From an uncultured Bacteroidota bacterium (GTDB lineage: Bacteria > Bacteroidota > Bacteroidia > JABEUT01), in the NCBI GenBank assembly GCA_903863935.1, contig CAIPDV010000069.1, positions 19,322 to 83,321 of the forward strand: 64,000 nt of DNA. Direction: 5' to 3'. Positions 5,260 through 63,414 of this stretch are shown piece after piece. Both the position numbers and the translations under genes were made by a program. The notes beneath the pieces are model-generated. The model searched no databases. It was given only the letters and a program-made list of their open reading frames with translations, and was not told where the DNA came from. The number at the start of each line of letters is the position of its first letter. Position 1 is the stretch's first letter.

Positions 5260-8200
5260 TCATTTCTGAATCACAAATTTTCGACTCGATTTTAATACCC
5301 CATTCCCATTCATTACCTGGCAAATATACACTCCGTTAGGCTGAGTGCTAAGGTCTATTTTTTTAGAAAAGCTATTCCCTGAAACAAAAAAATGAGAATC
5401 ATATATTTTTTGACCCAGCACATTATCTATTTCCAATGAAATTGTTCCATTTATTGATCCGGACTTTATATTGAAATTACCGTTATTTGGATTGGGGTAG
5501 ATCAACCAATCCCCTGCGACTCCGGCTAGTAGAGGTATTCCAGTGCAACTTTCTACATAAATACTGTCTGTAACCGATGCGGAACATCCGTTTGAATCTA
5601 TGTAGCTGTAGTAGATAAAATTAAATGCTCCGGTTTTAGCTGAATCCGGATAAAAATATTTCCCATGCACTGCATCCCCGCTTAATATCCCCCCCTTGGG
5701 ATTCATAAAAATGGTTATTACTCCCGCCCCGTTGCAAATTGTATCATTCGATTGAAGGATGAGAATTAATGAAGGTAGCGGATTTACTTTAATTATGGAA
5801 CTATCTTTTGTAAGACATCCGGTAGAATCTGTTACAGCAAGAATAAATTTGCTTGTATTTACCGGTGCAATGGAAATAAAATTATATGTTCCGCCTGTAC
5901 TCCACAAATAAGTGTAAGGGTTGAACCCGCCAGAACTATAATCAAATAACGTAACTGAATCACCAATGCAAACTGACGTTTTGGGAATGCTGTCCTTGAT
6001 TTTAGTGGGTTGAGTAATTGTAATAGCCGCAAAACCTGCACATCCATTATTATCGGTAATGTTAAGAGTATAAGTATTAGCTACCAGGTTACTATCTACG
6101 CTTCCTGTTGCTCCACCAGGTTTCCATAAGTATGTGTATGGCCCTGTACCTCCCGTAACTGTTGAACTAATATTTCCATTTTTATCTCCAAAGCAATGAA
6201 GATTGTGTACACTGTCTGCTATCTTTATTTCCTGGGGTTGGGTAATGGTGTCAGTTAAAATCAGAGTACAGTTATTTTTATCTTTTATAGTAATTGAATA
6301 AACTCCCCTGGATAGATTATTTACACTTAAAGTTGTATTGCCGTTGCTCCATAAATAGGTATATGGTGCCAACCCCCCGGAAACTATTGCATATGCCGAG
6401 CCATCGTTACCACCATAACATTGTACATTATTACTTGCAGTATAAACATTCATAACTGGGGCCTGCGTAATAACCACGGAAGCTGTTGAATTGCATCCGG
6501 AAGCATCCTTAATAGACACCGTATATGTGCCTGCACTAAGTCCACTGATATAAGAATTAGTACCATAACCCGCACTCCATAAATAAGTATAGGGTGCTAA
6601 ACCTCCTATTGTTGATATAAAGGCGTCAGCATTTGAATCTCTGTTACAAACAATATTGTTTATAACCGATATTGAAGCGACTAATGGGCTAATTTGGGCA
6701 ACGCTAAAAGTATCGGTAACTGCAAAATCACAATTGTGTGACACGGTTACAGTATAATTTCCTGCAATTAACCCGGTCACGGTTCTACTTGTAGCTCCAT
6801 TACTCCACGAATAAGAATATTGATTGGTATCCCAAAGGCATCCATTAATTGTTGCTGAAACTACAGCCCCGTCACAGTAATTGGTATGATTTTTATTAAC
6901 TGTTAAGCTGTAAATACTTGGTAAATTGAAACTGGAAATAAATTGATTACCGCAAACTATTAGTTTATTATTTATAGCAACACGAAGATCATAAATTTGA
7001 TTTGTGGCATTAATAACCGTTGTAATATTCAATCCCGTATCTAATACTTCCACTTTTGTGTTATTTGCTACGTAAATATTTTCACATAAATCTAAATCTA
7101 TTCCGCTCCAGTTCAAACTTGAGGCACCAATGTTTTTTGTAAATGTATTTACCCCAGTACTTTTATAATATCTCCGAAGGGTTTGTCCATCAAATAAATA
7201 GATCCATTTAGAACCTGCAACTTCACCATTCGGCGATGAACTATAACCTTGCTTTCCATCAATATAACTCAAATCGGGCAAGCCTTCGTAAAATGAAAAA
7301 CCATCAGATATAATATAATTAGTTGTCATGTAAGGCAATGTACATTTAACTAAAACATTATCGAAATCGGTTAAACTCGAATTGGTTTTCATAATTGCAG
7401 CATAAACGGCTGTATTGGAATTGTCAATTGCAAGAAGTGCAACATCATGTTGTGTTTCTCCACTGTGCAGAATATCAAATCCCTGAATAGAAGTAAAACT
7501 GGTATCTAGTAAGCAAATTTGGTTAGGATCTGCTGTTCCCCCGCCACCTATAACTAACTGTCCTATGCATTTACTATATGCTACTTTCCATAATTCTTCC
7601 ATAGGGTGTCCAATTGTGTAGGAATTTACCTGAATGCCATTAGAGTTTAATTTTAGGATAGTTGGTTCACCTGCACACCCCAAATAACTCGTACCACTTA
7701 CTTCATCTACGGCAAAGCTTCCGAACCCTGCAAGGGTATTCGGATAAATCGCATTAAAAATCCACTGAATATTTCCTGTACTGTCAAGTTTTATTTCTTG
7801 ATATGGGTTGAAACTACCATAAACATAAACATTGCCATGTAAATCGTAGTTTATATCATAACCCGCGTCATAACCCGTAAATAAAGGATTTACCGTCCAA
7901 GGGTCAATAACTAATGTTTTACTTTTATCATAAATACATAAAAACGATATTTCGTTTCCACTTTTTTGAAATGAGGCAGATACATTTTCATTGCTCTCTT
8001 TGTAAAAAACTTTTGTGGGCTTATGGTCAGTAAAATCGCCAAAGGAGCTTTGCAACTCGATATTACCGGAAGAATTAATTATACTATTATTTGCGTCTTT
8101 ATACAACAGTTTTACTTGTGATAGATTTGCACCCGGATGAATAATTACTGAGTACTCTAATCCCTTATCATTTGCAGGGAAGGAATATTCAATATCTATT

Positions 8201-10091: not shown

Positions 10092-10131
10092 TTCATAACT
10101 CATAGTTCATAGTTCTAAGCTCTTAGCTTAG
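10092..10131. repeat. Heptad tandem repeat array TTCATAAC TCATAGT TCATAGT TCTAAGC TCTTAGC in the nadD/mlaE divergent region, ~30 nt upstream of the nadD start
   Basis: Directly visible. Same repeat family as the three other arrays. Confidence 0.6.
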
Positions 10132-10274
10132 TGGCGGTAGTGCGAGTTATGTGTACTGAAATTAGGGCAGGTTCCGCAATGGTTCTTCCCCCGGAATATG
10201 AAGCATCCGGTAAGCAACTGCATGGAGGTTAATACGGTAATAAGGAGTAATACCCGTCTTGATTTCTTTGCCAT
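10128..10274 (-). CDS. Hypothetical 48-aa lipoprotein-like mini-protein (MAKKSRRVLLLITVLTSMQLLTGCFIFRGKNHCGTCPNFSTHNSHYRH)
   Basis: Hand-translated ORF below the 60-aa cutoff of the ORF track. Basic n-region, hydrophobic core, LTGC lipobox, Cys/His-rich tail. Sits in the 286-bp nadD/mlaE divergent intergenic region. Confidence 0.25.
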   Translation of the reverse strand: MAKKSRRVLLLITVLTSMQLLTGCFIFRGKNHCGTCPNFSTHNSHYRH

Positions 10275-10351
10275 GTTTGCAAATATACTATGGAATTGAA
10301 TATCCCCGGACTAAGGCAGCGTAATTTTAAAATACCTAATTTAGCAGCTTA

Positions 10352-13757: not shown

Positions 13758-13970
13758 ATCTTTAGAGTCATTGACTTTTTTCGCAAGTACTATTTCATGA
13801 CTTATTTTTGTACTGAAACAAGTTCGGCACAGGCTTTATGGAAAAAACAGGGGCATGCAAAAAAATAATTTTCAGGAGAATAGTATTCACCATTTTTTTG
13901 TTATTTACTGTTATTAACAGGCGGATACTTTGTAATGCGCTCATATTCAATATGCGAAAAAAATCTACGT

Positions 13971-14040
13971 CTCTGTTATTTACCTGTTATTCTCCTGTTA
14001 CCTCTCTGTTATTGCTCCTGTTAATTCCCTGTTATTTTTA
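13971..14040. repeat. Tandem array of six 11-12-bp units (consensus cCTGTTATTnnn) upstream of hemH
   Basis: Units: ctctgttatttac, ctgttattctc, ctgttacctct, ctgttattgctc, ctgttaattcc, ctgttattttta. The ~11.5-bp period is about one helical turn. Confidence 0.6.
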
Positions 14041-14073
14041 GTCTTTTTTGTGGTAAAACCTCAACTTTTCAAT

Positions 14074-14102
14074 ATATAACTCATAACGTATAACTCATAA
14101 CT
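14074..14102. repeat. Heptad tandem repeat array (TATAAC TCATAAC GTATAAC TCATAAC) ~25 nt upstream of the hemH start
   Basis: One of four similar arrays in the window (see findings). Confidence 0.6.
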
Positions 14103-14125
14103 GTTCAAATCGCTACTTTTGTGCA

Positions 14126-15160
14126 ATGAGCATCTCTCAAAAAACCGGCATCTTACTTTTAAATCTTGGTACACCTGATAGTCCAAGTACTGCAGATGTT
14201 AGGAAATACCTTCGTGAATTCCTTTGCGACCCGCGTGTGATCGATGTTCCCTGGCTACAAAGGCAACTGCTGGTGAAGTTGATAATCGCTCCTTTCAGAG
14301 GGCCGAAATCAGCAGCACAGTATCAACAAATATGGACCAAAGAGGGTTCCCCACTTCTTATACATAGCATGAACTTGGCGAAAAAGATGCAACAGAAAAT
14401 GGGCGATAAGTATGTTGTAGAGTTGGGAATGCGATATCAAAGCCCTCCTGTTTCGGAAGCACTGAATAAGATACTAAAGACTCCCGGAGTAGGGAAAGTG
14501 GTCATTGTTCCGCTCTATCCACAATACTCTGCATCTGCTACATCTTCATCGGTAGACAAGGCGATTGAGCTTCTCAAAAAGCAGGATGTAATACCTCCTT
14601 TTACTTTTACCGGTCCTTTCTACGATAACCCTTTATACATTGAAGCTTTTGCAAAGGTCTGGAAGAAGAAATACAACTTTGATGAGTACGATCATTTCTT
14701 ATTCAGCTATCACGGACTTCCTGAAAGGCACATCCACACTGCCTCTAACGAAAAGAATATGAAATGTAATCTGAATGGTTGCTGTGATGCTATCTCCTCT
14801 CAAAACTATTTCTGTTACCGTGCCTCTTGTTTCCATACAACACGATTATTAGTCGAAGCACTCGGACTCAAACCAGGTACTTATACCTCATCCTTCCAAT
14901 CAAGACTTGGTAAAGACCCTTGGATAAAACCTTACACCGACCATACCATTATTGACATCGCCAAAAAAGGAATTAAAAAGATGTTGGTTTTTTCGCCTGC
15001 ATTTGTAGCCGATTGTTTAGAGACTATTTTTGAAGTGAAAGTAGAATATGCACGTCTGTTTAAAGAGCATGGTGGCGAAACCCTGCATTTGGCCGAAAGC
15101 CTGAATGACAACGATGAATGGGTAGAGGCTTTGGAGGGCATAATTTTAAATGCTAAATAG
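14126..15160 (+). CDS. hemH: Ferrochelatase
   Basis: N-terminus GILLLNLGTPDSPSTADVRKYLREFL.DPRV and overall ~344 aa length match protoporphyrin ferrochelatase. Confidence 0.85.
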   Translation: MSISQKTGILLLNLGTPDSPSTADVRKYLREFLCDPRVIDVPWLQRQLLVKLIIAPFRGPKSAAQYQQIWTKEGSPLLIHSMNLAKKMQQKMGDKYVVELGMRYQSPPVSEALNKILKTPGVGKVVIVPLYPQYSASATSSSVDKAIELLKKQDVIPPFTFTGPFYDNPLYIEAFAKVWKKKYNFDEYDHFLFSYHGLPERHIHTASNEKNMKCNLNGCCDAISSQNYFCYRASCFHTTRLLVEALGLKPGTYTSSFQSRLGKDPWIKPYTDHTIIDIAKKGIKKMLVFSPAFVADCLETIFEVKVEYARLFKEHGGETLHLAESLNDNDEWVEALEGIILNAK

Positions 15161-20286: not shown

Positions 20287-21030
20287 ATGACACATACCTA
20301 CAAAATAACCGGAATGACTTGCAGTGGCTGTGAAGCCACCGTGAAAGGTAATTTACTGAAACTGTCCGAGGTTGAATCCGTAGAATTATCAAAGGATACA
20401 GGTATTGCGACTATAGGAATGAGCAAACATCTTTCAGTTTCCGATTTACAGAATGCAATTGGAATAAATAGTAAATATCATATTTCGGAAGATAGTAATC
20501 AGTCATCAGTTGTCAGTAGTCAGTCATCTACCGAGTATAGAAGTTGGTTAGCTACTTACAAACCCCTCATCATTCTGTTTAGTTTAATATTTAGTGTTTC
20601 ACTCATCGCATCTAAAAAGGCTGACGGAACTGTTGAATTTACAACCTGGATGCGGTATTTCATGGCAGGATTTTTTCTTTGCTTTTCATATTTCAAGCTC
20701 ATTAATGTAAAAGCTTTTGCCGATTCATTCAGTATGTATGACATTGTCGCTAAACGTATAAAAACCTGGGGATTTATGTACCCTTTTATGGAACTCGCTT
20801 TAGGTATTTTGTATGCAATGAATTTATACCCGCTATATACCAATATTGCAACCGTTGCCATTATGGGTGTAAGCAGCATCGGGGTAATACAAAGTGTTGC
20901 GAGCAAGAAAAAAATTCAATGTGCTTGCTTGGGTGCAGTGTTTAATTTGCCGATGAGTACTATTACCATTATAGAAGACTTATTAATGGTAGTAATGGCA
21001 GGTGGAATGATTTGGATGGAGTTGAAATAA
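20287..21030 (+). CDS. Heavy-metal-associated (HMA) domain fused to a MauE/DoxX-like membrane domain
   Basis: N-terminal GMTCSGCEATV metal-binding motif. C-terminal ~140 aa have four predicted TM helices with MauE-like features. Confidence 0.5.
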   Translation: MTHTYKITGMTCSGCEATVKGNLLKLSEVESVELSKDTGIATIGMSKHLSVSDLQNAIGINSKYHISEDSNQSSVVSSQSSTEYRSWLATYKPLIILFSLIFSVSLIASKKADGTVEFTTWMRYFMAGFFLCFSYFKLINVKAFADSFSMYDIVAKRIKTWGFMYPFMELALGILYAMNLYPLYTNIATVAIMGVSSIGVIQSVASKKKIQCACLGAVFNLPMSTITIIEDLLMVVMAGGMIWMELK

Positions 21031-31827: not shown

Positions 31828-32898
31828 TTATTTGGATGGTTTATAACCGGATTCCTTGTATATTTTGTCTGCACTTTTCATCGCCATCAATTGGGGTAGT
31901 GTAACATCCGGGTTATTTTTCATGTAGGTTCTTACAATCTGCCAGCCAATCCAGAAGCCAGTTCTGGAAGGGGCTAGATCATGATTGAATATGGATGTGA
32001 ACGGCCCGTCTTTCATCAGTTTACCAGTGCTAGCCTGGTCGGTAGAGTACAACAGTTTTTCGCGGATAATGTAAGCCCACATATTGAATTCATTGTCTTT
32101 GCACCACTCCAGCTGTTTTTTTGTATAACGTATCTTAATCGTGTCATTTACTTTGGGTAACATGGCATCCACTGAATACATGATTTTTCCTTCGTGTATT
32201 ATTTCCGCCAAAAGGTCATTCTTATCTTCATTCGGTTTGAAAACACTTTCTATCCAACCATACACTGCATCACTAAGCATGTAATCTTTGGTCATGAATT
32301 GAGCCTTATACCTAGGAATCTGAGCGTAAGTGTAAAGCATGTTATTCCGGCCAAGGTAACGTTCCAATGAAATTCCGAGAGTCGAATCGTAATAAATAAT
32401 TCCATAATCATACCCGCTCATAACAGTAACTACATTGGGTAGTATGTTATTCGGGTAGTAATAGTGATAATGCCTGAAAGCTTCTGTCAAACCATCCTCC
32501 AGAAATCCTACATCAGGATACATTTTTTCGCACGTATCATAGGTATCACGCATATCACGGTCGGTAATAAATCGTCTCAGTCCGGCGGCATAGGTAGAGT
32601 CCATTATGCCTCCATTATTGAGGAATGCTGTAACAAAGTCGGTATAAAAGATTCCGTATTTTTTTTGCATCCTCCGGGTATATTGATTAACGCTGTCTTT
32701 TGGCATTGCAAATATGTCACGTTCCATTCTGCCAATTTTTACCTGCGGAACAATAACTTTTGAAACATCAATATCCAGCGGATTACGATGACAGGATGCA
32801 AAGAAAAAAATTAATACAAATAACCCCAAACCCCTAAAGGGGCTTTTAATAGCACTATTTAAAGCCCCTTTAGGGGTTTGGGGTTGAAATGAATTCAT
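31828..32898 (-). CDS. gldB: Gliding-motility lipoprotein GldB-like
   Basis: Lipobox FFFASC. Downstream region KIGRMERDIFAMPKDS...YTRRMQKKYGIFYTDFV resembles the GldB N-terminal region. Start is ambiguous. The ATG overlaps the pcrA stop (TAATG), but a 64-bp palindrome + T-tract lies inside the first 25 codons. An internal TTG at ~32829 is the alternative start. Confidence 0.5.
   Translation of the reverse strand: MNSFQPQTPKGALNSAIKSPFRGLGLFVLIFFFASCHRNPLDIDVSKVIVPQVKIGRMERDIFAMPKDSVNQYTRRMQKKYGIFYTDFVTAFLNNGGIMDSTYAAGLRRFITDRDMRDTYDTCEKMYPDVGFLEDGLTEAFRHYHYYYPNNILPNVVTVMSGYDYGIIYYDSTLGISLERYLGRNNMLYTYAQIPRYKAQFMTKDYMLSDAVYGWIESVFKPNEDKNDLLAEIIHEGKIMYSVDAMLPKVNDTIKIRYTKKQLEWCKDNEFNMWAYIIREKLLYSTDQASTGKLMKDGPFTSIFNHDLAPSRTGFWIGWQIVRTYMKNNPDVTLPQLMAMKSADKIYKESGYKPSK
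32822..32885. repeat. 64-bp perfect palindrome (25-bp arms AACCCCAAACCCCTAAAGGGGCTTT / AAAGCCCCTTTAGGGGTTTGGGGTT, 14-nt loop) at the pcrA/gldB junction; likely pcrA terminator or an in-frame palindromic insertion
   Basis: Read directly from the sequence. A T-rich tract follows on the minus strand. Each arm also contains a cccc-taaa-gggg mini-hairpin. Confidence 0.6.
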
Positions 32899-35213
32899 TA
32901 TCCAACAATTTTCAATTTAGCAAACTTTAGCAGCAATTGTTTTTTATCTCCGTTGCCGAACATAACCGTTGCTTTACTGTTCGGATAAGAACCTTCTATA
33001 GTTAAAACTTCGCCCTGGCCGAATCGTTCATGTTCAACCCGGTTACCAACTTTCAGTCCGCTTAAATGCGAATTGTCCATTGGTAAAGAAGTTTGAGCAG
33101 CTTTGTTCATGCTCATTAATTTTTTCCCAACAATTGTTGGTGGCGGGGATTTAATAGCTGTTTGTGCAGGTTTTCGGAATGCTGAAGGAGTTCTGGAATA
33201 GACATGTTCACTGGCTTCTTCCCTGAAAGAAACATTGGTAAGGCATTCTGCAGGAATTTCTTCCAGGAAACGGCTTGGCTCGTTGCTTTGAGGGCTTCCA
33301 TAGCGGAAACGATAGATGGCATTCGAAAGTATAAGTTGCTTTTTTGCACGCGTAACGGCAACATAAAAGAGTCTGCGTTCCTCTTCTAACTCCTCCCTTG
33401 AATTCAGTACCATTTGCGATGGAAAAAGATTTTCTTCCATTCCTGCTATATACACGTAATTAAACTCCAGCCCTTTTGCAGCATGGATTGTCATAAGAAG
33501 AACCTTATCACTTTTAGATTTATCTTCTTTGGTCCTATCTTCATTTGTAAGCAGAGCCACATCTTCCATAAACATGCTAAGGCTTGGAATAACGCCTTCA
33601 TCCAATGGTTTCTCCGAAAAGTCTTTCAGTCCGTTGAATAATCCAAGAATGTTTTCGATCCGGTTAACCCCTTCCGGAGTGCGATCCTGTTCCAGTTCGC
33701 GTTTTAGTCCTGTAGTAGCGTAAATATATTCACCCATCTGGTATGCAGTAGATGTGGAAGCCATTGCAGCAAAGCTTTTGATCATATTTACAAACTCGGC
33801 AATCCTTTCGGTAACACGGGGAGAAAGCCCAAGATTAAAATCTTTTATGTTATCCATTACCATCCAAATGCTGATATCATTATCAGCAGCAGCCACAATC
33901 ATTTTATCGAATGTAGTATCGCCAATTTCACGTTTCGGATAGTTGATAACCCTTCTCAAAGCCTCTTCGTCATGTTGATTGATAGCTAAACGGAAATAGG
34001 CCAGCAAGTCCTTAATTTCCTTACGCTGATAGAATGAAAGTCCGCCATAAATACGGTAAGGGATATTGAGTTTTATCAACGCCTCCTCAATGGAACGTGA
34101 TTGTGCATTGGTTCGGTATAGTATTGCAAACTCACTATTGGCAGCTTGTTTGGTAGCTTTGAAATTAAAAATAGATTGAGCTATAACTCTTCCTTCGTCA
34201 GTATCGCGTTCAGCACGCATCAGCTGGATCTTTTCGCCTTCACCGTTTGATGTCCAAACGGTTTTTTGCAACTGGTCACGGTTTTTAGAGATAACTAAAT
34301 TGGCAGCGTGTACCAGAGTTTTGGTAGAACGGTAATTCTGTTCCAGTTTAAAAACCTGGGTATCGGGGTAGTGCTTCTGGAAGTTTAAAATGTTCTGAAT
34401 ATTCGCTCCGCGGAAGGCATAAATACTTTGTGCATCATCACCCACAACAGCTATGTTTTGGTGGCGTGCAGCAAGCTGGCGCAGAATCATATACTGTGAA
34501 AAGTTGGTATCCTGGTATTCATCCACCAATATGTAACGGAACATGTCCTGGTATTTTAACAGCACTTCAGGATGATCACGGAGCAACATATTTGTCTGGA
34601 ACAAAAGGTCGTCAAAATCCATGGCACCGGCTTTGAAAAGCCTTTTATTGTAGGTGAGAAAAATATGTGCGAAATGCTCCCTGCGGGCTGCCCTGTCATC
34701 ACTCATATATTGTGCATCGTTCACATATGCTTCTGCTGAAATGAGCATGTTTTTCATACTCGAAATACGACCCAATATGGTTGATGCCTTGTAGGTAGAA
34801 TCATTCAATCCTAATTCCTTGGTAATACTTTTTATCAAGCCCTTGGAATCATCCGTATCGTAAATGGTAAAGTTCTGAGGGTATCCTATTTTTTCAGCTT
34901 CTTTGCGCAATAAGCGTGCAAATACCGAGTGAAAAGTACCCATCCAGAGATTACGGGCATCGCCACCAATAAGCTCAATGATACGCTCTTTCATTTCGGC
35001 GGCGGCCTTATTTGTAAAGGTTAGCGAAAGCACCCTGAAAGGATCAACACCTTGTTTAAGCAGGTAGGCAATCCGATAGGTAAGCACCCTTGTTTTGCCT
35101 GAACCGGCACCTGCAATAATCATTACAGGGCCTTCGGTGGCTTCTACCGCTTTGCGTTGTTCCTCGTTAAGTTCATCTAAAAAATTATCTATCCTCGATT
35201 CCATAGCTTGCAA
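32898..35213 (-). CDS. UvrD/PcrA/Rep-family ATP-dependent DNA helicase
   Basis: Walker A GAGSGKT near the N-terminus. Helicase motifs DEYQDTN, VGDDAQSIYAFRGA, and a C-terminal motif VI region (VTRAK). Confidence 0.8.
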   Translation of the reverse strand: MQAMESRIDNFLDELNEEQRKAVEATEGPVMIIAGAGSGKTRVLTYRIAYLLKQGVDPFRVLSLTFTNKAAAEMKERIIELIGGDARNLWMGTFHSVFARLLRKEAEKIGYPQNFTIYDTDDSKGLIKSITKELGLNDSTYKASTILGRISSMKNMLISAEAYVNDAQYMSDDRAARREHFAHIFLTYNKRLFKAGAMDFDDLLFQTNMLLRDHPEVLLKYQDMFRYILVDEYQDTNFSQYMILRQLAARHQNIAVVGDDAQSIYAFRGANIQNILNFQKHYPDTQVFKLEQNYRSTKTLVHAANLVISKNRDQLQKTVWTSNGEGEKIQLMRAERDTDEGRVIAQSIFNFKATKQAANSEFAILYRTNAQSRSIEEALIKLNIPYRIYGGLSFYQRKEIKDLLAYFRLAINQHDEEALRRVINYPKREIGDTTFDKMIVAAADNDISIWMVMDNIKDFNLGLSPRVTERIAEFVNMIKSFAAMASTSTAYQMGEYIYATTGLKRELEQDRTPEGVNRIENILGLFNGLKDFSEKPLDEGVIPSLSMFMEDVALLTNEDRTKEDKSKSDKVLLMTIHAAKGLEFNYVYIAGMEENLFPSQMVLNSREELEEERRLFYVAVTRAKKQLILSNAIYRFRYGSPQSNEPSRFLEEIPAECLTNVSFREEASEHVYSRTPSAFRKPAQTAIKSPPPTIVGKKLMSMNKAAQTSLPMDNSHLSGLKVGNRVEHERFGQGEVLTIEGSYPNSKATVMFGNGDKKQLLLKFAKLKIVG

Positions 35214-51059: not shown

Positions 51060-51875
51060 TTACTTTACCCTTATTCCTTTTGTTTGCGAGGTATGTGCAC
51101 TGAAATATCCCAGTGCATTGTTTGAAATATTTGAGAGCGGATTATAAGGTGTCACATTTGTTGAACCTGACGCCTGCCGGAAGGTGCTGAAATAATTGTA
51201 GGCTCCCAGGTCGATGCATTGCATTTCTACACGAACAGTGTCTCCAATGTGGAGGGATGTATCTGAACGCATGGTGTAGTTAATGAATTTACCATTGTCA
51301 AACTGATCGTTAATTGTAAACATGCGTGTAACAATCGAATCATTGCGGGTTTCCACAAAGTGATAATAATTTACAGAATTGCCCGGGTCAAGAAAAACGG
51401 GCATTGGGTAAATGGCGGTATCCCGGAAGCGGAATTGTTTAACAGAAACAAGCGTATCAAAGTTCACCTTTTGAGGCATTGTGCAGGTTGAAATGTATGT
51501 TTGTCCGTTCGCAATAACTTTCAAGGTGTAAGTATGTCCCTGCGCACCTGCAATTTTGGTGGTTTTGTAAGTGCCGGGAATGCTTTCAGCAAGTGTATCT
51601 ATAGTGCCCATATCATCGGAAATAGTAATAAAGGCACTACTTATAGGAGGAAAAGTATTATTCTGGCTGAAGTTTACGGTTTGGTTCAGGGTAACTATGT
51701 AAGGTCCGGATTGGTCATTCACATTGCCTACAATTACAATGGCAGGAGAGGCTGAATTCAAATCCACATTTATTACTTTTTGACAAGAGATAAAAGATAA
51801 AAGTGAAAAACTAAAAATGAAAAATAAGGTGTGCCTGACACTTTTAATTTTTAGTTTATAATTTGTAATATTCAT
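51060..51875 (-). CDS. Lipoprotein (DUF4249-like) partnered with the upstream TonB-dependent receptor
   Basis: Lipobox FISCQK. Starts at the stop codon of the TBDR gene (1-bp overlap). Confidence 0.45.
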   Translation of the reverse strand: MNITNYKLKIKSVRHTLFFIFSFSLLSFISCQKVINVDLNSASPAIVIVGNVNDQSGPYIVTLNQTVNFSQNNTFPPISSAFITISDDMGTIDTLAESIPGTYKTTKIAGAQGHTYTLKVIANGQTYISTCTMPQKVNFDTLVSVKQFRFRDTAIYPMPVFLDPGNSVNYYHFVETRNDSIVTRMFTINDQFDNGKFINYTMRSDTSLHIGDTVRVEMQCIDLGAYNYFSTFRQASGSTNVTPYNPLSNISNNALGYFSAHTSQTKGIRVK

Positions 51876-54220
51876 TAGAATTTGAAATTATAAGAAACAG
51901 AAGGAATTATTCCGAAAAGTGAAGTAAGCACAGCCTGTGTTTGCTGGGAGTTATTTGGATTCTGTTGGAAAGTAATTGTGTAGGCATTCCAACGGTCATA
52001 GGCATTGTAAACAGAAAATGACCACTCCGCCTGGTAGTGCGGATGCTTTTTGCAATGATATGTTGCACCTACATCCATTCTGTGATAGTCGGGCATGCGG
52101 TAACCATTTCGGGAGGTGTAGTAATAAATTACATTGTCGTTAATGGCATATTTCCCGCTGGGAAAGGTAACAGGATATCCTGTATTGTAAATCCATGTGG
52201 CGGAAAAGGACCATTTTTTATTCAGGTCGTAAATTACAACAACATCAATATCATTTGTAATATCCTGCCTTGCTGGATACCAGTCTCCATTATTAACACC
52301 AGGTATTTGCAATTCTGTTTTCGACAGTGTGTAGCCCAGCCATCCGGTTAGTTTACCGAATTTTCTTTTCACAAAAAATTCCGCACCAAAGGAACGGCCG
52401 CTACCAAAGAGTAATTCATTTTCCACATTCTGATTGAGGTTGAGTTGTGCACCATTCTTATAATCGATCTGGTTCTGCATTATCTTATAATATGTTTCTA
52501 CCGAAAATTCATATTTATTATTTAAAAAATTACGGTAGTAACCAATGGAGAACTGATCTGATATTTCAGGTTTTACATTGTTACTGCTCGGAATCCACAG
52601 GTCAGTCGGGTTGGAAGATGTGGAATTGGAAAGCAAGTGCAGGTTCTGCACATTACGGTCATACGAAGCTTTGATGGAAGAAACCTCATTCAGCATGTAA
52701 TTCGCATTGAAGCGGGGTTCCGGGTTGATATATGTTTTCACAAACTGTCCGCTTGAGTACTTGGCTGAATCAACCGGATTGCCATTTGCATCATAGGTAT
52801 AGAATGTTCCCGCACCCAGCAGTGAGAAGGATGTTAACCTTATTCCTGCTACAAATTTTAACCGTTCACTCACTTTAAATTCATCGGAAACAAACAGGGC
52901 GGCCTCAAGCGCATAGCGGCTTTGAATGTGTGTGCTGTTTATATTCGAATCATTCGAGACGATGTTGCCTGGCACAATAGTGTGATGTATAACATTAAAG
53001 CCAAATAGAATTTTATTTTTTGAATTCGGATAATATTGAAATTCCTGTTTCAGGTTCCAGTCGTTAATAGTAGATTGTATCCCGATATTAAGACTTGGTG
53101 TTGTAATACTTATATTGAAATTATAGTTGCTGTAAATTAAAGAAGTATTCGAAAATAGCTTAGCCCCGAAGATGTGGTTCCAGCGCAGGGTTCCGGTTGT
53201 ATTGCCCCAGTTAATTCCAAATTGATTATTCGCACCCAACACATCTTTACCCAAATATCCCGACAGATAAATACGGTCGTTTTCACCCAGGGTATAGTTG
53301 CCTTTAATATTGAAATCGTAAAAATAAAGGCTGCTGTTGCGCAATGAAGTATTGTTGGAAAGTTTCAAAAACAGATCGGCATATGTTCTTCTGGCCGAAA
53401 CCAAAAATGAGCCTTTGCCTTTTTTTATGGGTCCTTCAAAATTCAACCTTGATGCTATAAGTCCTATACCGCCGCTTACATGATATGATTGATCGTTGCC
53501 GTCATTCATGCGGATATCCTCTACCGAAGCGAGGCGGCCACCGTAATTCACCGGCATTCCGCTTTTATAAAGCGTTACATTCTTTATAGCATCGGAATTG
53601 AAAACGGAAAAGAAACCCAGCAAGTGAGATGCATTATAAACCGGGGCTTCATCCAGCAGAACAAGATTCTGGTCGGCAGCACCTCCACGTACATAAAAAC
53701 CGCTGTTACCATCGCCGGCAGAAATAACGCCCGGCAGCAGTTGCATGGTTTTTAATACATCTTTTTCACCAAAGAACACCGGTATTTTGGCAATCTCTTT
53801 CACATCAAGCTGAACCATACCGGTTTGTGTGCTGGTTACATTCTCCGTTGGCTTTGCACCCTGCACGCTTACTTCCTGCAAGGTGGAACTATTGGAAGAT
53901 AGGGTGACATTATGTTTAAAATTCTGCTTAAGTGTAATTTTTATGGAGTCGGTATTATAGCCCAGGTAGGTATAGTAAAGTGTATAGGAACCTTCAGGCA
54001 AGGTTAATGAGTAAAACCCATATTTATTGGTGCTTACGCCTGTAGCCTCCAATTCTTTCACCGAGACTATAGCACCAATAAGTTCTTCGCCTGATGCGGA
54101 ATCTTTAATAGTACCGCTTACCGTAAATTTTTGCCCTGACTGGGCAAAAACTAAATTGGTAATTAGTAAAAGAGCAAACAGACTTAGTTTCCTTAGTGAC
54201 ATAAAGTGCCAAATATACAC
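51875..54220 (-). CDS. TonB-dependent outer-membrane receptor with N-terminal carboxypeptidase-regulatory-like domain
   Basis: Signal peptide. CarbopepD_reg-like start (KFTVSGTIKDSASGEELIGAIVSV). A plug region. 781 aa ending in a terminal Phe. Confidence 0.8.
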   Translation of the reverse strand: MYIWHFMSLRKLSLFALLLITNLVFAQSGQKFTVSGTIKDSASGEELIGAIVSVKELEATGVSTNKYGFYSLTLPEGSYTLYYTYLGYNTDSIKITLKQNFKHNVTLSSNSSTLQEVSVQGAKPTENVTSTQTGMVQLDVKEIAKIPVFFGEKDVLKTMQLLPGVISAGDGNSGFYVRGGAADQNLVLLDEAPVYNASHLLGFFSVFNSDAIKNVTLYKSGMPVNYGGRLASVEDIRMNDGNDQSYHVSGGIGLIASRLNFEGPIKKGKGSFLVSARRTYADLFLKLSNNTSLRNSSLYFYDFNIKGNYTLGENDRIYLSGYLGKDVLGANNQFGINWGNTTGTLRWNHIFGAKLFSNTSLIYSNYNFNISITTPSLNIGIQSTINDWNLKQEFQYYPNSKNKILFGFNVIHHTIVPGNIVSNDSNINSTHIQSRYALEAALFVSDEFKVSERLKFVAGIRLTSFSLLGAGTFYTYDANGNPVDSAKYSSGQFVKTYINPEPRFNANYMLNEVSSIKASYDRNVQNLHLLSNSTSSNPTDLWIPSSNNVKPEISDQFSIGYYRNFLNNKYEFSVETYYKIMQNQIDYKNGAQLNLNQNVENELLFGSGRSFGAEFFVKRKFGKLTGWLGYTLSKTELQIPGVNNGDWYPARQDITNDIDVVVIYDLNKKWSFSATWIYNTGYPVTFPSGKYAINDNVIYYYTSRNGYRMPDYHRMDVGATYHCKKHPHYQAEWSFSVYNAYDRWNAYTITFQQNPNNSQQTQAVLTSLFGIIPSVSYNFKF

Positions 54221-60078: not shown

Positions 60079-60552
60079 TTATCCTCCGTTTTGCACCATT
60101 CTCTTTATCAGCACAATCTGCCCCAAATGATAATGGCAATGTTCAATAATACCATGCAGATTGCGGTAGTAGTTGCCATATTTTTCATCCACAAATGTTT
60201 CCCAAAGTTTGCTCTCGGGTAATTGGTCAATCATACAGGCAAAGTTTTCTACCTCAGCGTAAGTTTTATCCAATAATTGTTTCCACTCATCTTCGGAGGT
60301 TATTGACGGATGAATAAAACTGTATTCATCTTTGGAATCGATAGGTTTCCCTTTGAACACCCGTGTTACAGCCTCCATGTAATAATTGGTGTGAAAGACA
60401 AGTGTAGCGATCGTGTTAAAGGAATAAACTTTTGTTGTCGCTTGCTGCCAGGTCACATCTTTTAAACTATCCTTAAAGTTTACAGCAGTCCAGTTGCCTC
60501 CAAAATAAACCTCTCGTAAATGCTTTGCTATTTGTCCCGCAATATCGGTCAT
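60079..60552 (-). CDS. DinB-family protein (second copy in the window)
   Basis: ~157 aa with conserved His cluster (HCHYHLGQI) typical of DinB/YfiT-like metal-dependent proteins. Confidence 0.45.
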   Translation of the reverse strand: MTDIAGQIAKHLREVYFGGNWTAVNFKDSLKDVTWQQATTKVYSFNTIATLVFHTNYYMEAVTRVFKGKPIDSKDEYSFIHPSITSEDEWKQLLDKTYAEVENFACMIDQLPESKLWETFVDEKYGNYYRNLHGIIEHCHYHLGQIVLIKRMVQNGG

Positions 60553-60577
60553 AACTTATAACTCATAACTTATAACT
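60550..60577. repeat. Heptad tandem repeat array CATAACT TATAACT CATAACT TATAACT abutting the start codon of the DinB-like gene
   Basis: Directly visible. Overlaps the annotated ATG at 60552 and fills the first ~28 nt of the leader. Confidence 0.6.
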
Positions 60578-60581
60578 GACT

Positions 60582-61205
60582 TTATGAGAACTTCTTATGG
60601 AACCAGAACAGCCTTGAAATGATTCCAACCCACATTAAAGTAATAATGCAAAAGGCTACCACCGGTAACCAGAAAGCAATAATAGCACTACCCAGTACAA
60701 TAGGAATTGCTAAGCGCGGTCCATGAATTTTGGTGCGCATTTGTTTCTGGCTGTGTTCATCGCGAATAAGTAGTTTGGGTTTAAATGTAGAGTAAAGCAG
60801 CAGCGCATATCCTGTAGATTGCAACAGATTAAATGCACAGTAAATAACCACTGCCGGCGTCGCATATTCGGTATCTAAATATTCCGCTACAAGGGCAGAT
60901 GCAAAAGGAAAAAGCACAATAGTGAGCAGATAAAAACCATTGGCAAACATTAAATGCAGCGATGATTTATCAAGTAGTTTAAAGATCCCATGGTGCGAAA
61001 GCCATCCCAGCAGGATAATGATAAAACTCAATACCACAGCGAATAAGTTAGGCCACAGTTTGCTTAATGCAATCCAGAATTCATGCACCGAATGAACGGA
61101 TTCCGCATTGGGTACTTTTATTTCCAATACCAGCAACGTGATTGCGATGGCAAAAATTCCATCGGAGAAAAACTCTAACCGTTCATTTTCTTTTATAGCA
61201 GACAT
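60582..61205 (-). CDS. DUF1211/TMEM175-like membrane protein (putative K+ channel family)
   Basis: N-terminal signature RLEFFSDGIFAIAITLLVLEI (RxxxFSDGxxAxxxTLLVLE). Six TM helices. Confidence 0.6.
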   Translation of the reverse strand: MSAIKENERLEFFSDGIFAIAITLLVLEIKVPNAESVHSVHEFWIALSKLWPNLFAVVLSFIIILLGWLSHHGIFKLLDKSSLHLMFANGFYLLTIVLFPFASALVAEYLDTEYATPAVVIYCAFNLLQSTGYALLLYSTFKPKLLIRDEHSQKQMRTKIHGPRLAIPIVLGSAIIAFWLPVVAFCIITLMWVGIISRLFWFHKKFS

Positions 61206-61330
61206 AATGGGGTGTATTGTGTTACAATATTAAGGAAAAATAAAATAATGCAGGAGTTGTTCATTAAGACTCATTTGAAACCAACGTAAGGGCAATAAAA
61301 AGATAATTGCCAGTTCGGCTCCGCCTACAA

Positions 61331-61360
61331 TTCATAGTTCATAGCTTATAGTTCATAGCT
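61331..61360. repeat. Heptad tandem repeat array TTCATAG TTCATAGC TTATAG TTCATAGC ~20 nt upstream of the uvrB start
   Basis: Directly visible. Same repeat family as at 10092, 14074 and 60550. Confidence 0.6.
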
Positions 61361-61380
61361 AATTGCCTAACTTTGCAACT

Positions 61381-63414
61381 ATGGAATTTCAATTAGAAGC
61401 CCCTTTTAGCCCAACAGGCGATCAGCCGCAAGCCATTGAACAACTTACCAAAGGGGTTACAAATGGTATTGCCAACCAGGTTTTGCTAGGTGTTACAGGC
61501 TCCGGTAAAACATTTACCATTGCCAACGTTATTGCCAATACCAAGAAACCCACTCTTGTGTTGAGCCACAATAAAACGCTGGCAGCACAGCTTTTTGGGG
61601 AGTTTAAAACGTTCTTTCCGAAGAATGCGGTGGAATATTTTGTCTCGTATTATGATTACTATCAGCCCGAGGCTTACCTTCCAACTACCAATACATACAT
61701 TGAAAAGGACCTTTCCATAAACGAAGAAATTGAAAAGTTGCGTTTGGCAACAACGTCGGCACTACTCTCCGGAAGGCGCGATATTATTGTGGTTTCATCG
61801 GTCTCGTGCATTTATGGTATTGGTAACCCGGTTGAGTTTGAAAATACGGTTATTGCCATACAAAAGAATCAAAAAATAAGCCGTACCAAGTTTTTAAATT
61901 TATTGGTCATTGCCCTCTATTCCCGCACCGAAGGCGACTTTGACCGGGGTAACTTCCGGGTGAAAGGTGATACCGTCGATATTTACCTGGCTTACGCCGA
62001 CCATGCTTTACGTGTGCAGTTTTTGGGTAATTCCATCGAAGGAATTGAAACCTTTGAAGCCTCTACAGGTAAGAGAATTGAATCACTGGATTCCATAAAA
62101 ATTTATCCTGCAAATATATTTGTCACTTCCCCTGATACATTAAATAAGTCGTTGCAAAACATTGCGGAAGATTTAGTGAAACAAGTCAATTTTTTAAAAG
62201 AGATTGGAAAGGATGAAGAAGCTGAACGGCTGCAAAAGCGCGTGAATTATGACCTGGAGATGATGCGCGAACTGGGCTACTGTTCAGGCATTGAAAACTA
62301 TTCGCGTTATTTTGACGGCAGAAGACCGGGTGAAAGGCCTTATTGCCTGCTTGATTATTTCCCGAAGGATTACCTGATGGTGATTGATGAAAGCCACGTA
62401 ACCATAGGACAAATAAATGGCATGTATGGAGGCGACCGTTCACGCAAAACTACGCTTGTTGATTATGGTTTCCGTATGCCTTCAGCACTGGATAACCGTC
62501 CGCTTAAGTTTGATGAGTTTGAAGCTTTCCAGACACAGACCATTTTTATGAGCGCAACCCCCGCTGATTACGAATTGCAAAAGGCGGAAGGTGTTGTGGT
62601 GGAGCAATTGATACGGCCCACTGGCTTGCTTGACCCGATTATTGAAGTGCGCCCTACACTCAACCAGATTGATAATTTATTGGAAGAAATCCGTAAAAAT
62701 GTAGAGATAGAAGAAAGAGTAATTATTACTACGCTCACCAAGCGCATGGCGGAAGAACTGGCCAAATACCTTGCCAAAGTAGATGTGCGTTGCCGTTATG
62801 TTCACTCCGATATTGATACGCTGGAGCGAGTTGAAATACTTCACGATTTGCGAATGGGCCTCTTTGATGTGCTGATTGGTGTTAATTTATTGAGAGAGGG
62901 TATTGACCTTCCGGAAGTATCGTTGCTGGCTATTTTAGATGCGGATAAAGAAGGTTTCCTGCGTTCGGAGCGTTCGCTTACGCAGATTGTAGGCCGTGTG
63001 GCACGTAACTCAAACGGGCGTGTTATAATGTATGCAGACCGCATAACAGGCTCGATGCAGAAAACAATGGATGAAACCCAGCGCAGGCGCAAAAAGCAAA
63101 TTGCTTATAACTACGAACATAATATTACTCCTACTACTATCATAAAAGGTAAGGAAAGTATTATGGAACAAGCCGGCCTTGGAGATTCAAGAAGTACGAA
63201 AGCGAAAATTTATTTAGCAAATACGGAAGCCCAGAATGCCGCTCTGGCTGCGGAATCACTTACTGAATACCAAAGTATACCTAAATTGGAAGACGAAATA
63301 AAACGCACTAAAAAGGCCATGGAAAAAGCAGCCAAAGAAATGGATTTTATTGAAGCAGCAAGGTTGCGCGACCATTTGCAGGCATTGCAAAAAATGCTTG
63401 AAAGCAAAAAATAA
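61381..63414 (+). CDS. uvrB: Excinuclease ABC subunit B
   Basis: Walker A GVTGSGKT, helicase motifs, and C-terminal UVR domain (EMDFIEAARLRDHL). Start set at MEFQLEAPF. Confidence 0.9.
   Translation: MEFQLEAPFSPTGDQPQAIEQLTKGVTNGIANQVLLGVTGSGKTFTIANVIANTKKPTLVLSHNKTLAAQLFGEFKTFFPKNAVEYFVSYYDYYQPEAYLPTTNTYIEKDLSINEEIEKLRLATTSALLSGRRDIIVVSSVSCIYGIGNPVEFENTVIAIQKNQKISRTKFLNLLVIALYSRTEGDFDRGNFRVKGDTVDIYLAYADHALRVQFLGNSIEGIETFEASTGKRIESLDSIKIYPANIFVTSPDTLNKSLQNIAEDLVKQVNFLKEIGKDEEAERLQKRVNYDLEMMRELGYCSGIENYSRYFDGRRPGERPYCLLDYFPKDYLMVIDESHVTIGQINGMYGGDRSRKTTLVDYGFRMPSALDNRPLKFDEFEAFQTQTIFMSATPADYELQKAEGVVVEQLIRPTGLLDPIIEVRPTLNQIDNLLEEIRKNVEIEERVIITTLTKRMAEELAKYLAKVDVRCRYVHSDIDTLERVEILHDLRMGLFDVLIGVNLLREGIDLPEVSLLAILDADKEGFLRSERSLTQIVGRVARNSNGRVIMYADRITGSMQKTMDETQRRRKKQIAYNYEHNITPTTIIKGKESIMEQAGLGDSRSTKAKIYLANTEAQNAALAAESLTEYQSIPKLEDEIKRTKKAMEKAAKEMDFIEAARLRDHLQALQKMLESKK

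Follow-up and report, generated by a model that had tools for sequence, protein, structure and literature searches.

Heptamer repeat arrays beside four gene starts of an uncultured freshwater Bacteroidia: one sequence family in two gene contexts

Four short arrays of tandem 7-bp units lie beside the starts of nadD, hemH, a DinB_2-like gene and uvrB in a 64,000-nucleotide stretch of DNA from an uncultured freshwater Bacteroidia (contig CAIPDV010000069.1, positions 19,322 to 83,321; the whole stretch is here called the window). Do they form a cis-element that a common regulator reads, as a sequence-only reading had proposed, or are they the product of repeat turnover in non-coding DNA? Our analysis suggests, with moderate confidence, that the four arrays are an AT-rich family of heptanucleotide simple-sequence repeats (SSRs), tolerated or weakly useful as spacers, and not the operators of a common regulator. 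They belong to a class that has already been described, the intergenic heptamer repeats common in Bacteroidota and cyanobacteria. The main result as it stands is the removal of a regulon hypothesis that was tempting and unsupported.

One repeat family in two gene contexts

The four arrays are given here as read on the + strand of the window.

10092..10131, + strand: array 1, TTCATAA CTCATAG TTCATAG TTCTAAG CTCTTAG CTTAG; reverse relative to nadD, intercistronic
14073..14102, + strand: array 2, TATATAA CTCATAA CGTATAA CTCATAA CT; forward relative to hemH
60548..60579, + strand: array 3, GTCATAA CTTATAA CTCATAA CTTATAA CTGA; reverse relative to the DinB_2-like gene
61331..61365, + strand: array 4, TTCATAG TTCATAG CTTATAG TTCATAG CTAATTG; forward relative to uvrB

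Tandem Repeats Finder assigns a period of 7 to each of them, with 5.1 copies at 10093-10128 (array 1), 3.9 at 14076-14102 (array 2), 3.9 at 60551-60577 (array 3) and 4.0 at 61331-61358 (array 4). Each array holds 4-5 units, units match at 77-90% within arrays, and arrays 2, 3 and 4 contain an exact 14-bp unit twice, which array 1 lacks. The family was captured as a degenerate three-unit pattern, TYATARYTYATARYTYATAR, with up to two mismatches allowed and dinucleotide-preserving shuffles as the null. The window contains 13 matches where the shuffles predict 0.13, which rules out a chance origin; all matches fall in or beside the four arrays, except for a weak AT-rich stretch at 51842-51868. A sliding test found six peaks at period 7 across the window, whereas periods 5, 6 and 8-11 gave no peak. 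All four arrays lie outside open reading frames (ORFs) of at least 100 aa, and by the same proxy ~87% of the window is coding. These data confirm that the arrays are real, strongly non-random members of a single recurring family that adjoins gene starts in the window, at the distances originally claimed: 26 nt for nadD, 23 nt for hemH and 15-22 nt for uvrB, with the ATG of the DinB-like gene inside its array.

The arrays share a single register, YTYATAR on the + strand of the window (equivalent to a TAACTNA/TAGYTNA register), and YTCATAR is a unit consensus common to all four sites. The two sequence forms that had been distinguished are one family, differing at a single position that is A in TAA and G in TAG; two separate motif classes are ruled out by this common register and by array 1, which mixes the TAA and TAG forms. 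The four arrays contain one exact TAACTGA, with which array 3 ends, and otherwise consist of TAACTYA, TAACGTA or TAGYTYA units. Both strands of every YTYATAR unit include a stop codon (TAR in forward sense, TRA in reverse sense), so that three units close all six reading frames. Units in reverse sense contain ATG and units in forward sense do not.

The four arrays and the weak stretch at 51842-51868 have the same + strand sense, whatever the direction of the neighboring gene (p ~0.06-0.12), a possible sign of replication-strand polarity. MacGregor found a similar one-strand pattern in a Microcystis sample (PMC4679880); in our scan of other genomes, described below, loci with two arrays show mixed orientations. 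Several other identities were ruled out. The flanks of the four arrays share nothing, which excludes a miniature mobile element with common flanks. A known RNA family or riboswitch is excluded by the Rfam covariance models, which give only three tRNAs at gathering score in the window. A stable RNA structure is likewise excluded, with only weak A-U hairpins predicted (z -0.4 to -2.5) and no significant folding of arrays 2 and 4.

The hemH and uvrB arrays were placed relative to the Bacteroidota -7 promoter box, TAnnTTTG, with box definition and positions taken from published work (PMC6847099), in which the G of the Flavobacterium johnsoniae box lies at -5. Such boxes are found 4-54 nt upstream of 20 window genes. 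The relevant promoter features are these.

14114..14121, + strand: -7 box of hemH, TACTTTTG, then TGCA and the ATG at 14126
61320..61330, + strand: upstream edge of the uvrB promoter block, TCCGCCTACAA; the relatives L136 and L138 become similar from exactly this point
61368..61375, + strand: -7 box of uvrB, TAACTTTG, then CAACT and the ATG at 61381; identical in five relatives

With the G of the hemH box at -5, the predicted transcription start is the A of the ATG itself (14126), as in a leaderless-type gene, and a transcript leader of 0-1 nt is predicted for uvrB, whose true ATG is at 61381. Array 2 lies at about -53..-24 from the predicted hemH transcription start, and array 4 at about -49..-15 from that of uvrB. 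Because the -7 box sits between array and ATG, arrays 2 and 4 are promoter DNA and not leaders, and the earlier placement of these two arrays on 5' leaders does not hold. A -7-like box 4-10 nt before the hemH ATG is kept in relatives, and the before-ATG box is kept in all relatives examined.

A -7 box only 4-7 nt before the ATG is found at five places in the window: 14114-14128, 61368-61383, 10272-10287 (-), and upstream of 32898..35204 (-) and 51875..54202 (-). This arrangement predicts leaderless mRNAs or mRNAs with a 1-nt leader. Such mRNAs have been reported to be rare in F. johnsoniae and in Bacteroides thetaiotaomicron (~3.7% of 5' untranslated regions <10 nt). The DNA upstream of hemH also carries six direct copies of CTGTTAT at 11-12 bp spacing, in helical phase (13973-14037, also 13900-13925), and five of the 13 exact copies in the window fall within a 130-nt stretch of this region. 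The copies lie within a possible 66-aa hydrophobic ORF (~13839-14039, +), and their GTTAT core is complementary to the ATAAC core of array 2, 35 nt downstream. Relatives have different DNA in this region.

The nadD and DinB_2 arrays have a second context, which involves the following features.

10128..10274, - strand: small lipoprotein gene, unannotated, 48 aa, lipobox LLTGC, protein MAKKSRRVLLLITVLTSMQLLTGCFIFRGKNHCGTCPNFSTHNSHYRH; between mlaE and nadD
10280..10287, - strand: -7 box of the small lipoprotein gene, read from the sequence as TATATTTG (CAAATATA on the + strand), then CAAAC and the ATG
60079..60552, - strand: DinB_2/DUF1572-type gene; start codon supplied by the last unit of array 3
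60582..61205, - strand: TMEM175-like gene; its stop codon is followed by 5 nt and then array 3

On the transcribed (-) strand, array 1 starts at the stop codon of the small lipoprotein gene (10128-10130) and ends 26 nt before the nadD ATG (10065); this overlap with the stop codon rules out a divergent intergenic location. Array 3 reads TAA-AGTCA-(GTTATRA)x4 on the - strand and fills the 29-nt spacer from the TMEM175-like stop codon (60582-60584) to the DinB_2-like ATG (60552-60550), which is part of the last unit. Both reverse arrays are intercistronic spacers directly behind the stop codon of an upstream co-directional gene. The window therefore separates two contexts that are linked to orientation, one upstream of the -7 boxes of leaderless-type genes and the other directly behind stop codons.

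Pfam confirms nadD, mlaE, ferrochelatase (hemH), the TMEM175-like gene and uvrB. The DinB_2 match has E=4e-5, just under the curated cut-off, and homologs are named DUF1572 or DinB family in their source records. The host also encodes SprB and Por_Secre_tail genes in the window, and contigs identical to the window occur in lake metagenomes. On identical contigs, gene callers have overlooked the 48-aa lipoprotein gene, which is conserved (6884-7060) in L133, a relative with 77% hemH identity. nadD begins 62 nt downstream, and the two genes are probably co-transcribed; the likely promoter of their joint mRNA, which would include array 1, is TATATTTG.

Arrays 1 and 3 are in the intercistronic RNA just ahead of nadD and of the DinB_2 gene, a position that invites the question of whether they act in translation. 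Transcribed arrays would then serve as Shine-Dalgarno-independent platforms for ribosome landing or re-initiation, bound by S1 or a Csp-like protein, as has been proposed for TAACTGA repeats. This would suit the Bacteroidota, which do not use Shine-Dalgarno sequences and in which initiation relies on unstructured, A-rich leaders (PMC6847099). In Flexibacter litoralis, moreover, 12 of 14 repeat sets are forward and lie 1-43 nt from a start codon (MacGregor, PMC4679880). The DinB_2 ATG is within the array in 5/6 lineages (lineage counts here and below include the window), and in arrays 1 and 3 a mini-ORF, as read from the sequence, runs from an array AUG to a UGA that overlaps the downstream AUG. 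This mini-ORF chain is not conserved in L265 and L267, which have an AUG in the last unit only, and it is ruled out as the reason for the retention of array 3. In L262, the array remains next to the upstream stop codon, and a 68-nt insertion with a hairpin lies between it and the DinB_2 ATG. The hemH and uvrB arrays fall outside the mRNA made from the -7-box promoter, the RNA of array 3 is predicted to form a weak hairpin (z=-2.2) and is not unstructured, and both intercistronic arrays have the reverse, AUG-containing sense, which elsewhere is the rarer one near start codons. We regard an RNA-level translation element as a rather unlikely account of the four arrays.

Distribution in other genomes

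Other genomes were scanned for four perfect units, with one genome per species and phyla assigned by record title, and at least 120 loci were found. Among the matches listed, to which the counts in the next two paragraphs also refer, ~83 loci (~69%) belong to Bacteroidota, 14 (~12%) to Cyanobacteriota and 23 to others, and the TCATAAY family is thus very widespread in Bacteroidota. A viral collection gave further family matches, with giant-virus bins among the matches listed, and a single metagenome scan gave 5 loci.

With ORFs of at least 100 aa taken as genes, none of the 134 arrays lies within one. The arrays occur in either orientation, and 107 of them have genes on both sides. By flank type, these are 39 co-directional forward, 31 co-directional reverse, 25 (23%) convergent and 12 divergent, against a background for these loci of 431 co-directional, 85 convergent and 87 divergent arrangements (chi-square p=0.045). 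These flank arrangements mean that many arrays elsewhere have no adjacent gene start. Reverse arrays tend to adjoin the stop codon of a gene whose sense strand reads RTTATGA, 29/63 of them within 12 nt. Beside the 134 arrays, -7 boxes are not enriched (7 against 8.8 expected), which rules out a general link between the arrays and the -7 promoter box.

The period of 7 extends beyond the seed family. Further, unseeded arrays in the same 120 loci number 253 at period 7, against 43 at period 6, 79 at period 8 and 96 at period 9, and the further heptamer arrays carry many other units. Stop codons on both strands occur in 93/249 heptamer arrays, against 65±6 for letter-permuted units, in a sample that is not independent of the seed family.

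Some loci show more elaborate arrangements. In seven (L008, L054, L079, L086, L094, L111, L122) a TCATAAY array faces its own inverted copy across a short spacer, giving long structures capable of forming hairpins, and in Lentisphaeria (L013, L044, L045, L122) the array lies within a larger repeated module with GAATGCT heptamers. The window itself has heptamer stretches in coding sequence (2665-2697, 20494-20528 and 51782-51870), built from other units and with a sense strand free of stop codons in each. In a SprB/NHL protein of 914 aa, the C-terminal sorting domain contains ACTGACA-type units. A Ser-rich linker that joins HMA and MauE domains is encoded by AGTMATC units, and the signal peptide of a DUF4249 lipoprotein by T-rich units. 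These stretches suggest that slippage by 7 nt also shapes genes themselves, wherever their sense strand lacks stop codons.

Orthologous sites and the choice between readings

In relatives, the arrays are patchily conserved. The spacer between the TMEM175 stop codon and the DinB_2 ATG keeps its array in 6/6 lineages, the uvrB promoter in 3/6, the hemH promoter in 2/5 and the nadD site in 1/2, the array being absent between small ORF and nadD in L133, the one relative.

At the TMEM175/DinB_2 spacer, every lineage has 4-5 heptamer units that start ~5 nt past the stop codon, with a lag-7 identity of 0.58-0.77, against 55-62% divergence at four-fold degenerate sites of TMEM175. The unit variants are lineage-specific and common to the units of one array (TATRAGT, GATAAGY, TATRARC), a case of concerted evolution, so that this site displays long persistence together with concerted change. 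At uvrB, the block formed by TCCGCCTACAA, the 35-bp array, CC, TAACTTTG, CAACT and the ATG has no indels between the window, L136 (96% UvrB identity to the window) and L138 (93%); the intergenic region 3' of uvrB is diverged and has many indels. Different sequence, weakly periodic or non-periodic, occupies the array site in L265 and L267 (94% UvrB) and in L140 (89%). At hemH, the window and L130 (83%) have the array, and L129 (86%), L131 (85%) and L133 (77%) lack it. Two sites, then, keep arrays in relatives whose neutral sites are saturated: some arrays outlast synonymous saturation, one with a fixed length and another with concerted unit change.

Synteny breaks immediately upstream of the arrays of uvrB and hemH (L124-L141, L262-L267). 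Lineages at 83-96% protein identity have different genes upstream of these arrays, and an FMN_red gene that relatives carry is lost in the window. MacGregor has linked heptamer repeats to rearranged junctions (PMC4679880). A further contig, If3AbE6l, encodes an identical UvrB and has a single 245-aa TMEM175 gene call in place of the TMEM175-like gene, array 3 and DinB_2 (window 60079-61205). This region is 389 nt shorter than in the window, and the contig may be a deletion variant spanning array 3.

Length data bear on whether the arrays could be phase-variable contingency loci, at which slippage alters the unit number and toggles promoter spacing or leader length, as at hmw1A/hmw2A of Haemophilus influenzae (PMC2651432). 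The 7-bp tandem repeats do lie in or beside promoters, and exact 14-bp duplications suggest recent slippage. The arrays nevertheless have only 4-5 units, imperfect and alternating, whereas hmw tracts run to 13-38 perfect ones, and their neighbors are housekeeping genes rather than genes for surface antigens. Copy number does not change among same-strain contigs in three data sets (L001-L003, L135), whose samples may overlap, and an identical-protein look-up for strain-level variation returned identical contigs only. With no indels in the uvrB array across three lineages and a steady 4-5 units in six lineages at the DinB_2 site, phase variation is very improbable and we rule it out.

The SSR process is favored because four features generalize, namely the period, the confinement of arrays to non-coding DNA, their patchy gain and loss, and the concerted way in which units change. 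We infer that arrays would arise and turn over by slipped-strand duplication or deletion of 7- or 14-bp units in non-coding DNA and would persist only where harmless, such that only 'inert' heptamers could expand in compact genomes, with no dedicated binding factor involved. Forward units, lacking ATG, would be tolerated in promoter and leader DNA, and reverse units, which contain it, mainly behind stop codons or where the ATG serves as a start codon. Any effect of an array on its neighbor genes would depend on context. The forward arrays of hemH and uvrB make up the -52..-15 part of -7-box promoters at leaderless-type genes, and the two reverse arrays each make up an intercistronic spacer behind a stop codon, one of them supplying the ATG of the next gene.

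Several observations weigh against this SSR reading. One unit family dominates, with 12 of the 13 intergenic heptamer arrays in 172 kb of the window's lineage, which sequence-blind slippage does not predict. Copy number is steady at 4-5 units at all conserved sites, which is not obviously expected of free slippage, and degenerate unit positions keep stop codons on both strands. The genes of other genomes were represented by ORFs of at least 100 aa, a proxy and not real annotation; by this proxy, 18/61 forward arrays among the matches listed lie within 22 nt of a start codon, against 4/47 reverse arrays (Fisher p=0.008), a difference that would also favor the translation element. Both hemH and uvrB have their array in a common promoter interval, about -52..-15. 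The uvrB array, finally, is 14-17% diverged over its exact 35 bp, against 53-58% at four-fold sites, and T2, T5 and G7 of its units are almost invariant in three lineages; this pattern resembles the outcome of purifying selection and would agree with a heptad-reading protein.

Such a protein is central to the operator hypothesis, in which a DNA-binding factor reads contiguous 7-bp units and controls the adjacent promoters, with the four genes forming a regulon that is possibly damage-related. The shared interval, the fixed and slowly diverging uvrB array and the YTCATAR consensus at every site of this genome would all agree with it. Contiguous short-repeat operators are known, as for omega and MetJ. 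A Nostoc preprint ties heptamer repeats to the recF/recO promoters (bioRxiv 10.1101/2022.06.06.494920). A common operator is nevertheless difficult to reconcile with the two contexts, since two of the four arrays are not at promoters and lie behind stop codons in opposite orientation relative to their genes. At the orthologous hemH, nadD and uvrB sites, equally close relatives lack the array or have it replaced, and elsewhere the convergent arrays and the lack of -7 box enrichment, both among the matches listed, speak against such an operator. Unit sequence drifts even where conservation is best (GATAAGC, TATGAAC, TATAAGT). The damage-responsive regulon fares no better, as the four genes share no function and the 'DinB-like' protein is of DinB_2/DUF1572 type and is not DNA polymerase IV or any repair polymerase. 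The published Bacteroidetes SOS box, CTAA-N5-TTAG (PMC8565304), has no match in the window, which rules out this SOS operator (the alternative GGA-N5-TCC, too degenerate, was not scanned). We consider heptad operator arrays unlikely.

A broader proposal, in our view quite improbable, is that YTNATAR arrays, TAACTGA included, are read by a conserved nucleic-acid-binding factor of Bacteroidota and Cyanobacteria. The 7-nt unit would be its binding module, and control would be genome-wide, exerted on promoter DNA or on intercistronic RNA just past stop codons, according to orientation. Candidate footprints of such a factor would be the fixed 35-bp uvrB array with its T2/T5/G7 positions, the six-lineage persistence at TMEM175/DinB_2 and the stop codons on both strands. 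If the arrays are maintained by selection rather than by being regenerated continuously, these sites would offer compact tests of what such repeats do in a phylum that has unusual promoters and does not use Shine-Dalgarno sequences.

Comparison with known repeat systems

Knowledge of heptamer repeats goes back to 1990 for cyanobacteria and to 2015 for a few Bacteroidetes. Mazel et al., a study cited in PMC4692102, reportedly described the cyanobacterial STRR heptanucleotide repeats in 1990, with CCCCAGT, TTGGTCA and CAACAGT as STRR1-3. A heptamer-rich class of long SSRs in prokaryotes was described by Mrazek et al. (2007), as summarized in PMC4679880. The arrays of the window resemble both in their tandemly amplified 7-nt units, mostly non-coding location, many unit types per genome and over-representation of period 7. 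They differ from STRR in their YTYATAR units, in a host that belongs to the freshwater Bacteroidia and is not a heterocystous cyanobacterium, and in being short (4-5 units) and imperfect. The element is indeed not a standard annotation class, as had been claimed, although its type was already described (PMC4679880; cyanobacterial STRR).

Xanthomonas and Nostoc carry the G-rich, quadruplex-forming heptamer repeats GGGAATC and GGGGAYT (PMC4692102). These too are intergenic heptamer SSRs that occupy the same positions in related species and vary in sequence and length, but the units described here are AT-rich and cannot form G4. Closer in position are the heptamers TTCAAAA and GACYAAT upstream of recF and recO in Nostoc PCC 7120, which have modest reporter effects and are described without an identified binding factor (bioRxiv 10.1101/2022.06.06.494920). 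There, 3-8 contiguous heptamers lie 30-100 nt from start codons or -10 boxes, some overlapping the start codon, and the neighbors are DNA-repair genes, as uvrB is here; the unit sequences are different. The promoters of H. influenzae hmw1A/hmw2A also contain heptanucleotide tandem repeats, with 13-38 perfect units that vary between strains (PMC2651432). The arrays of the window are instead short, imperfect and length-stable.

For protein binding to such DNA, mechanistic models exist in the omega repressor of pSM19035, a ribbon-helix-helix protein with heptad operator arrays, and in MetJ, which has tandem 8-bp met boxes; one dimer binds per repeat. By analogy, contiguous short promoter repeats of this kind could indicate how a 7-bp array might be read, although the arrays described here also lie behind stop codons and, elsewhere, between convergent genes.

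The closest known relatives are the TAACTGA intergenic direct repeats of Beggiatoaceae, Cyanobacteria and a few Bacteroidetes (MacGregor 2015, PMC4679880). Like the arrays of the window, these are tandem heptamers, in 2-6 copies, intergenic, often beside start codons, with sets 'split' by related 7-mers, and they occur in the same phyla. The register is identical (TAACTGA is CTGATAA; here CTYATAA/TTCATAG corresponds to TAACTYA/TAGYTYA). The variable position is C/T here and G there, and the window adds a TAG variant. Two of the four arrays described here are forward, at 15-23 nt and with a -7 box between array and ATG, and two are reverse. Here, moreover, the comparison of orthologous sites gives direct evidence of arrays that persist for a long time in place.

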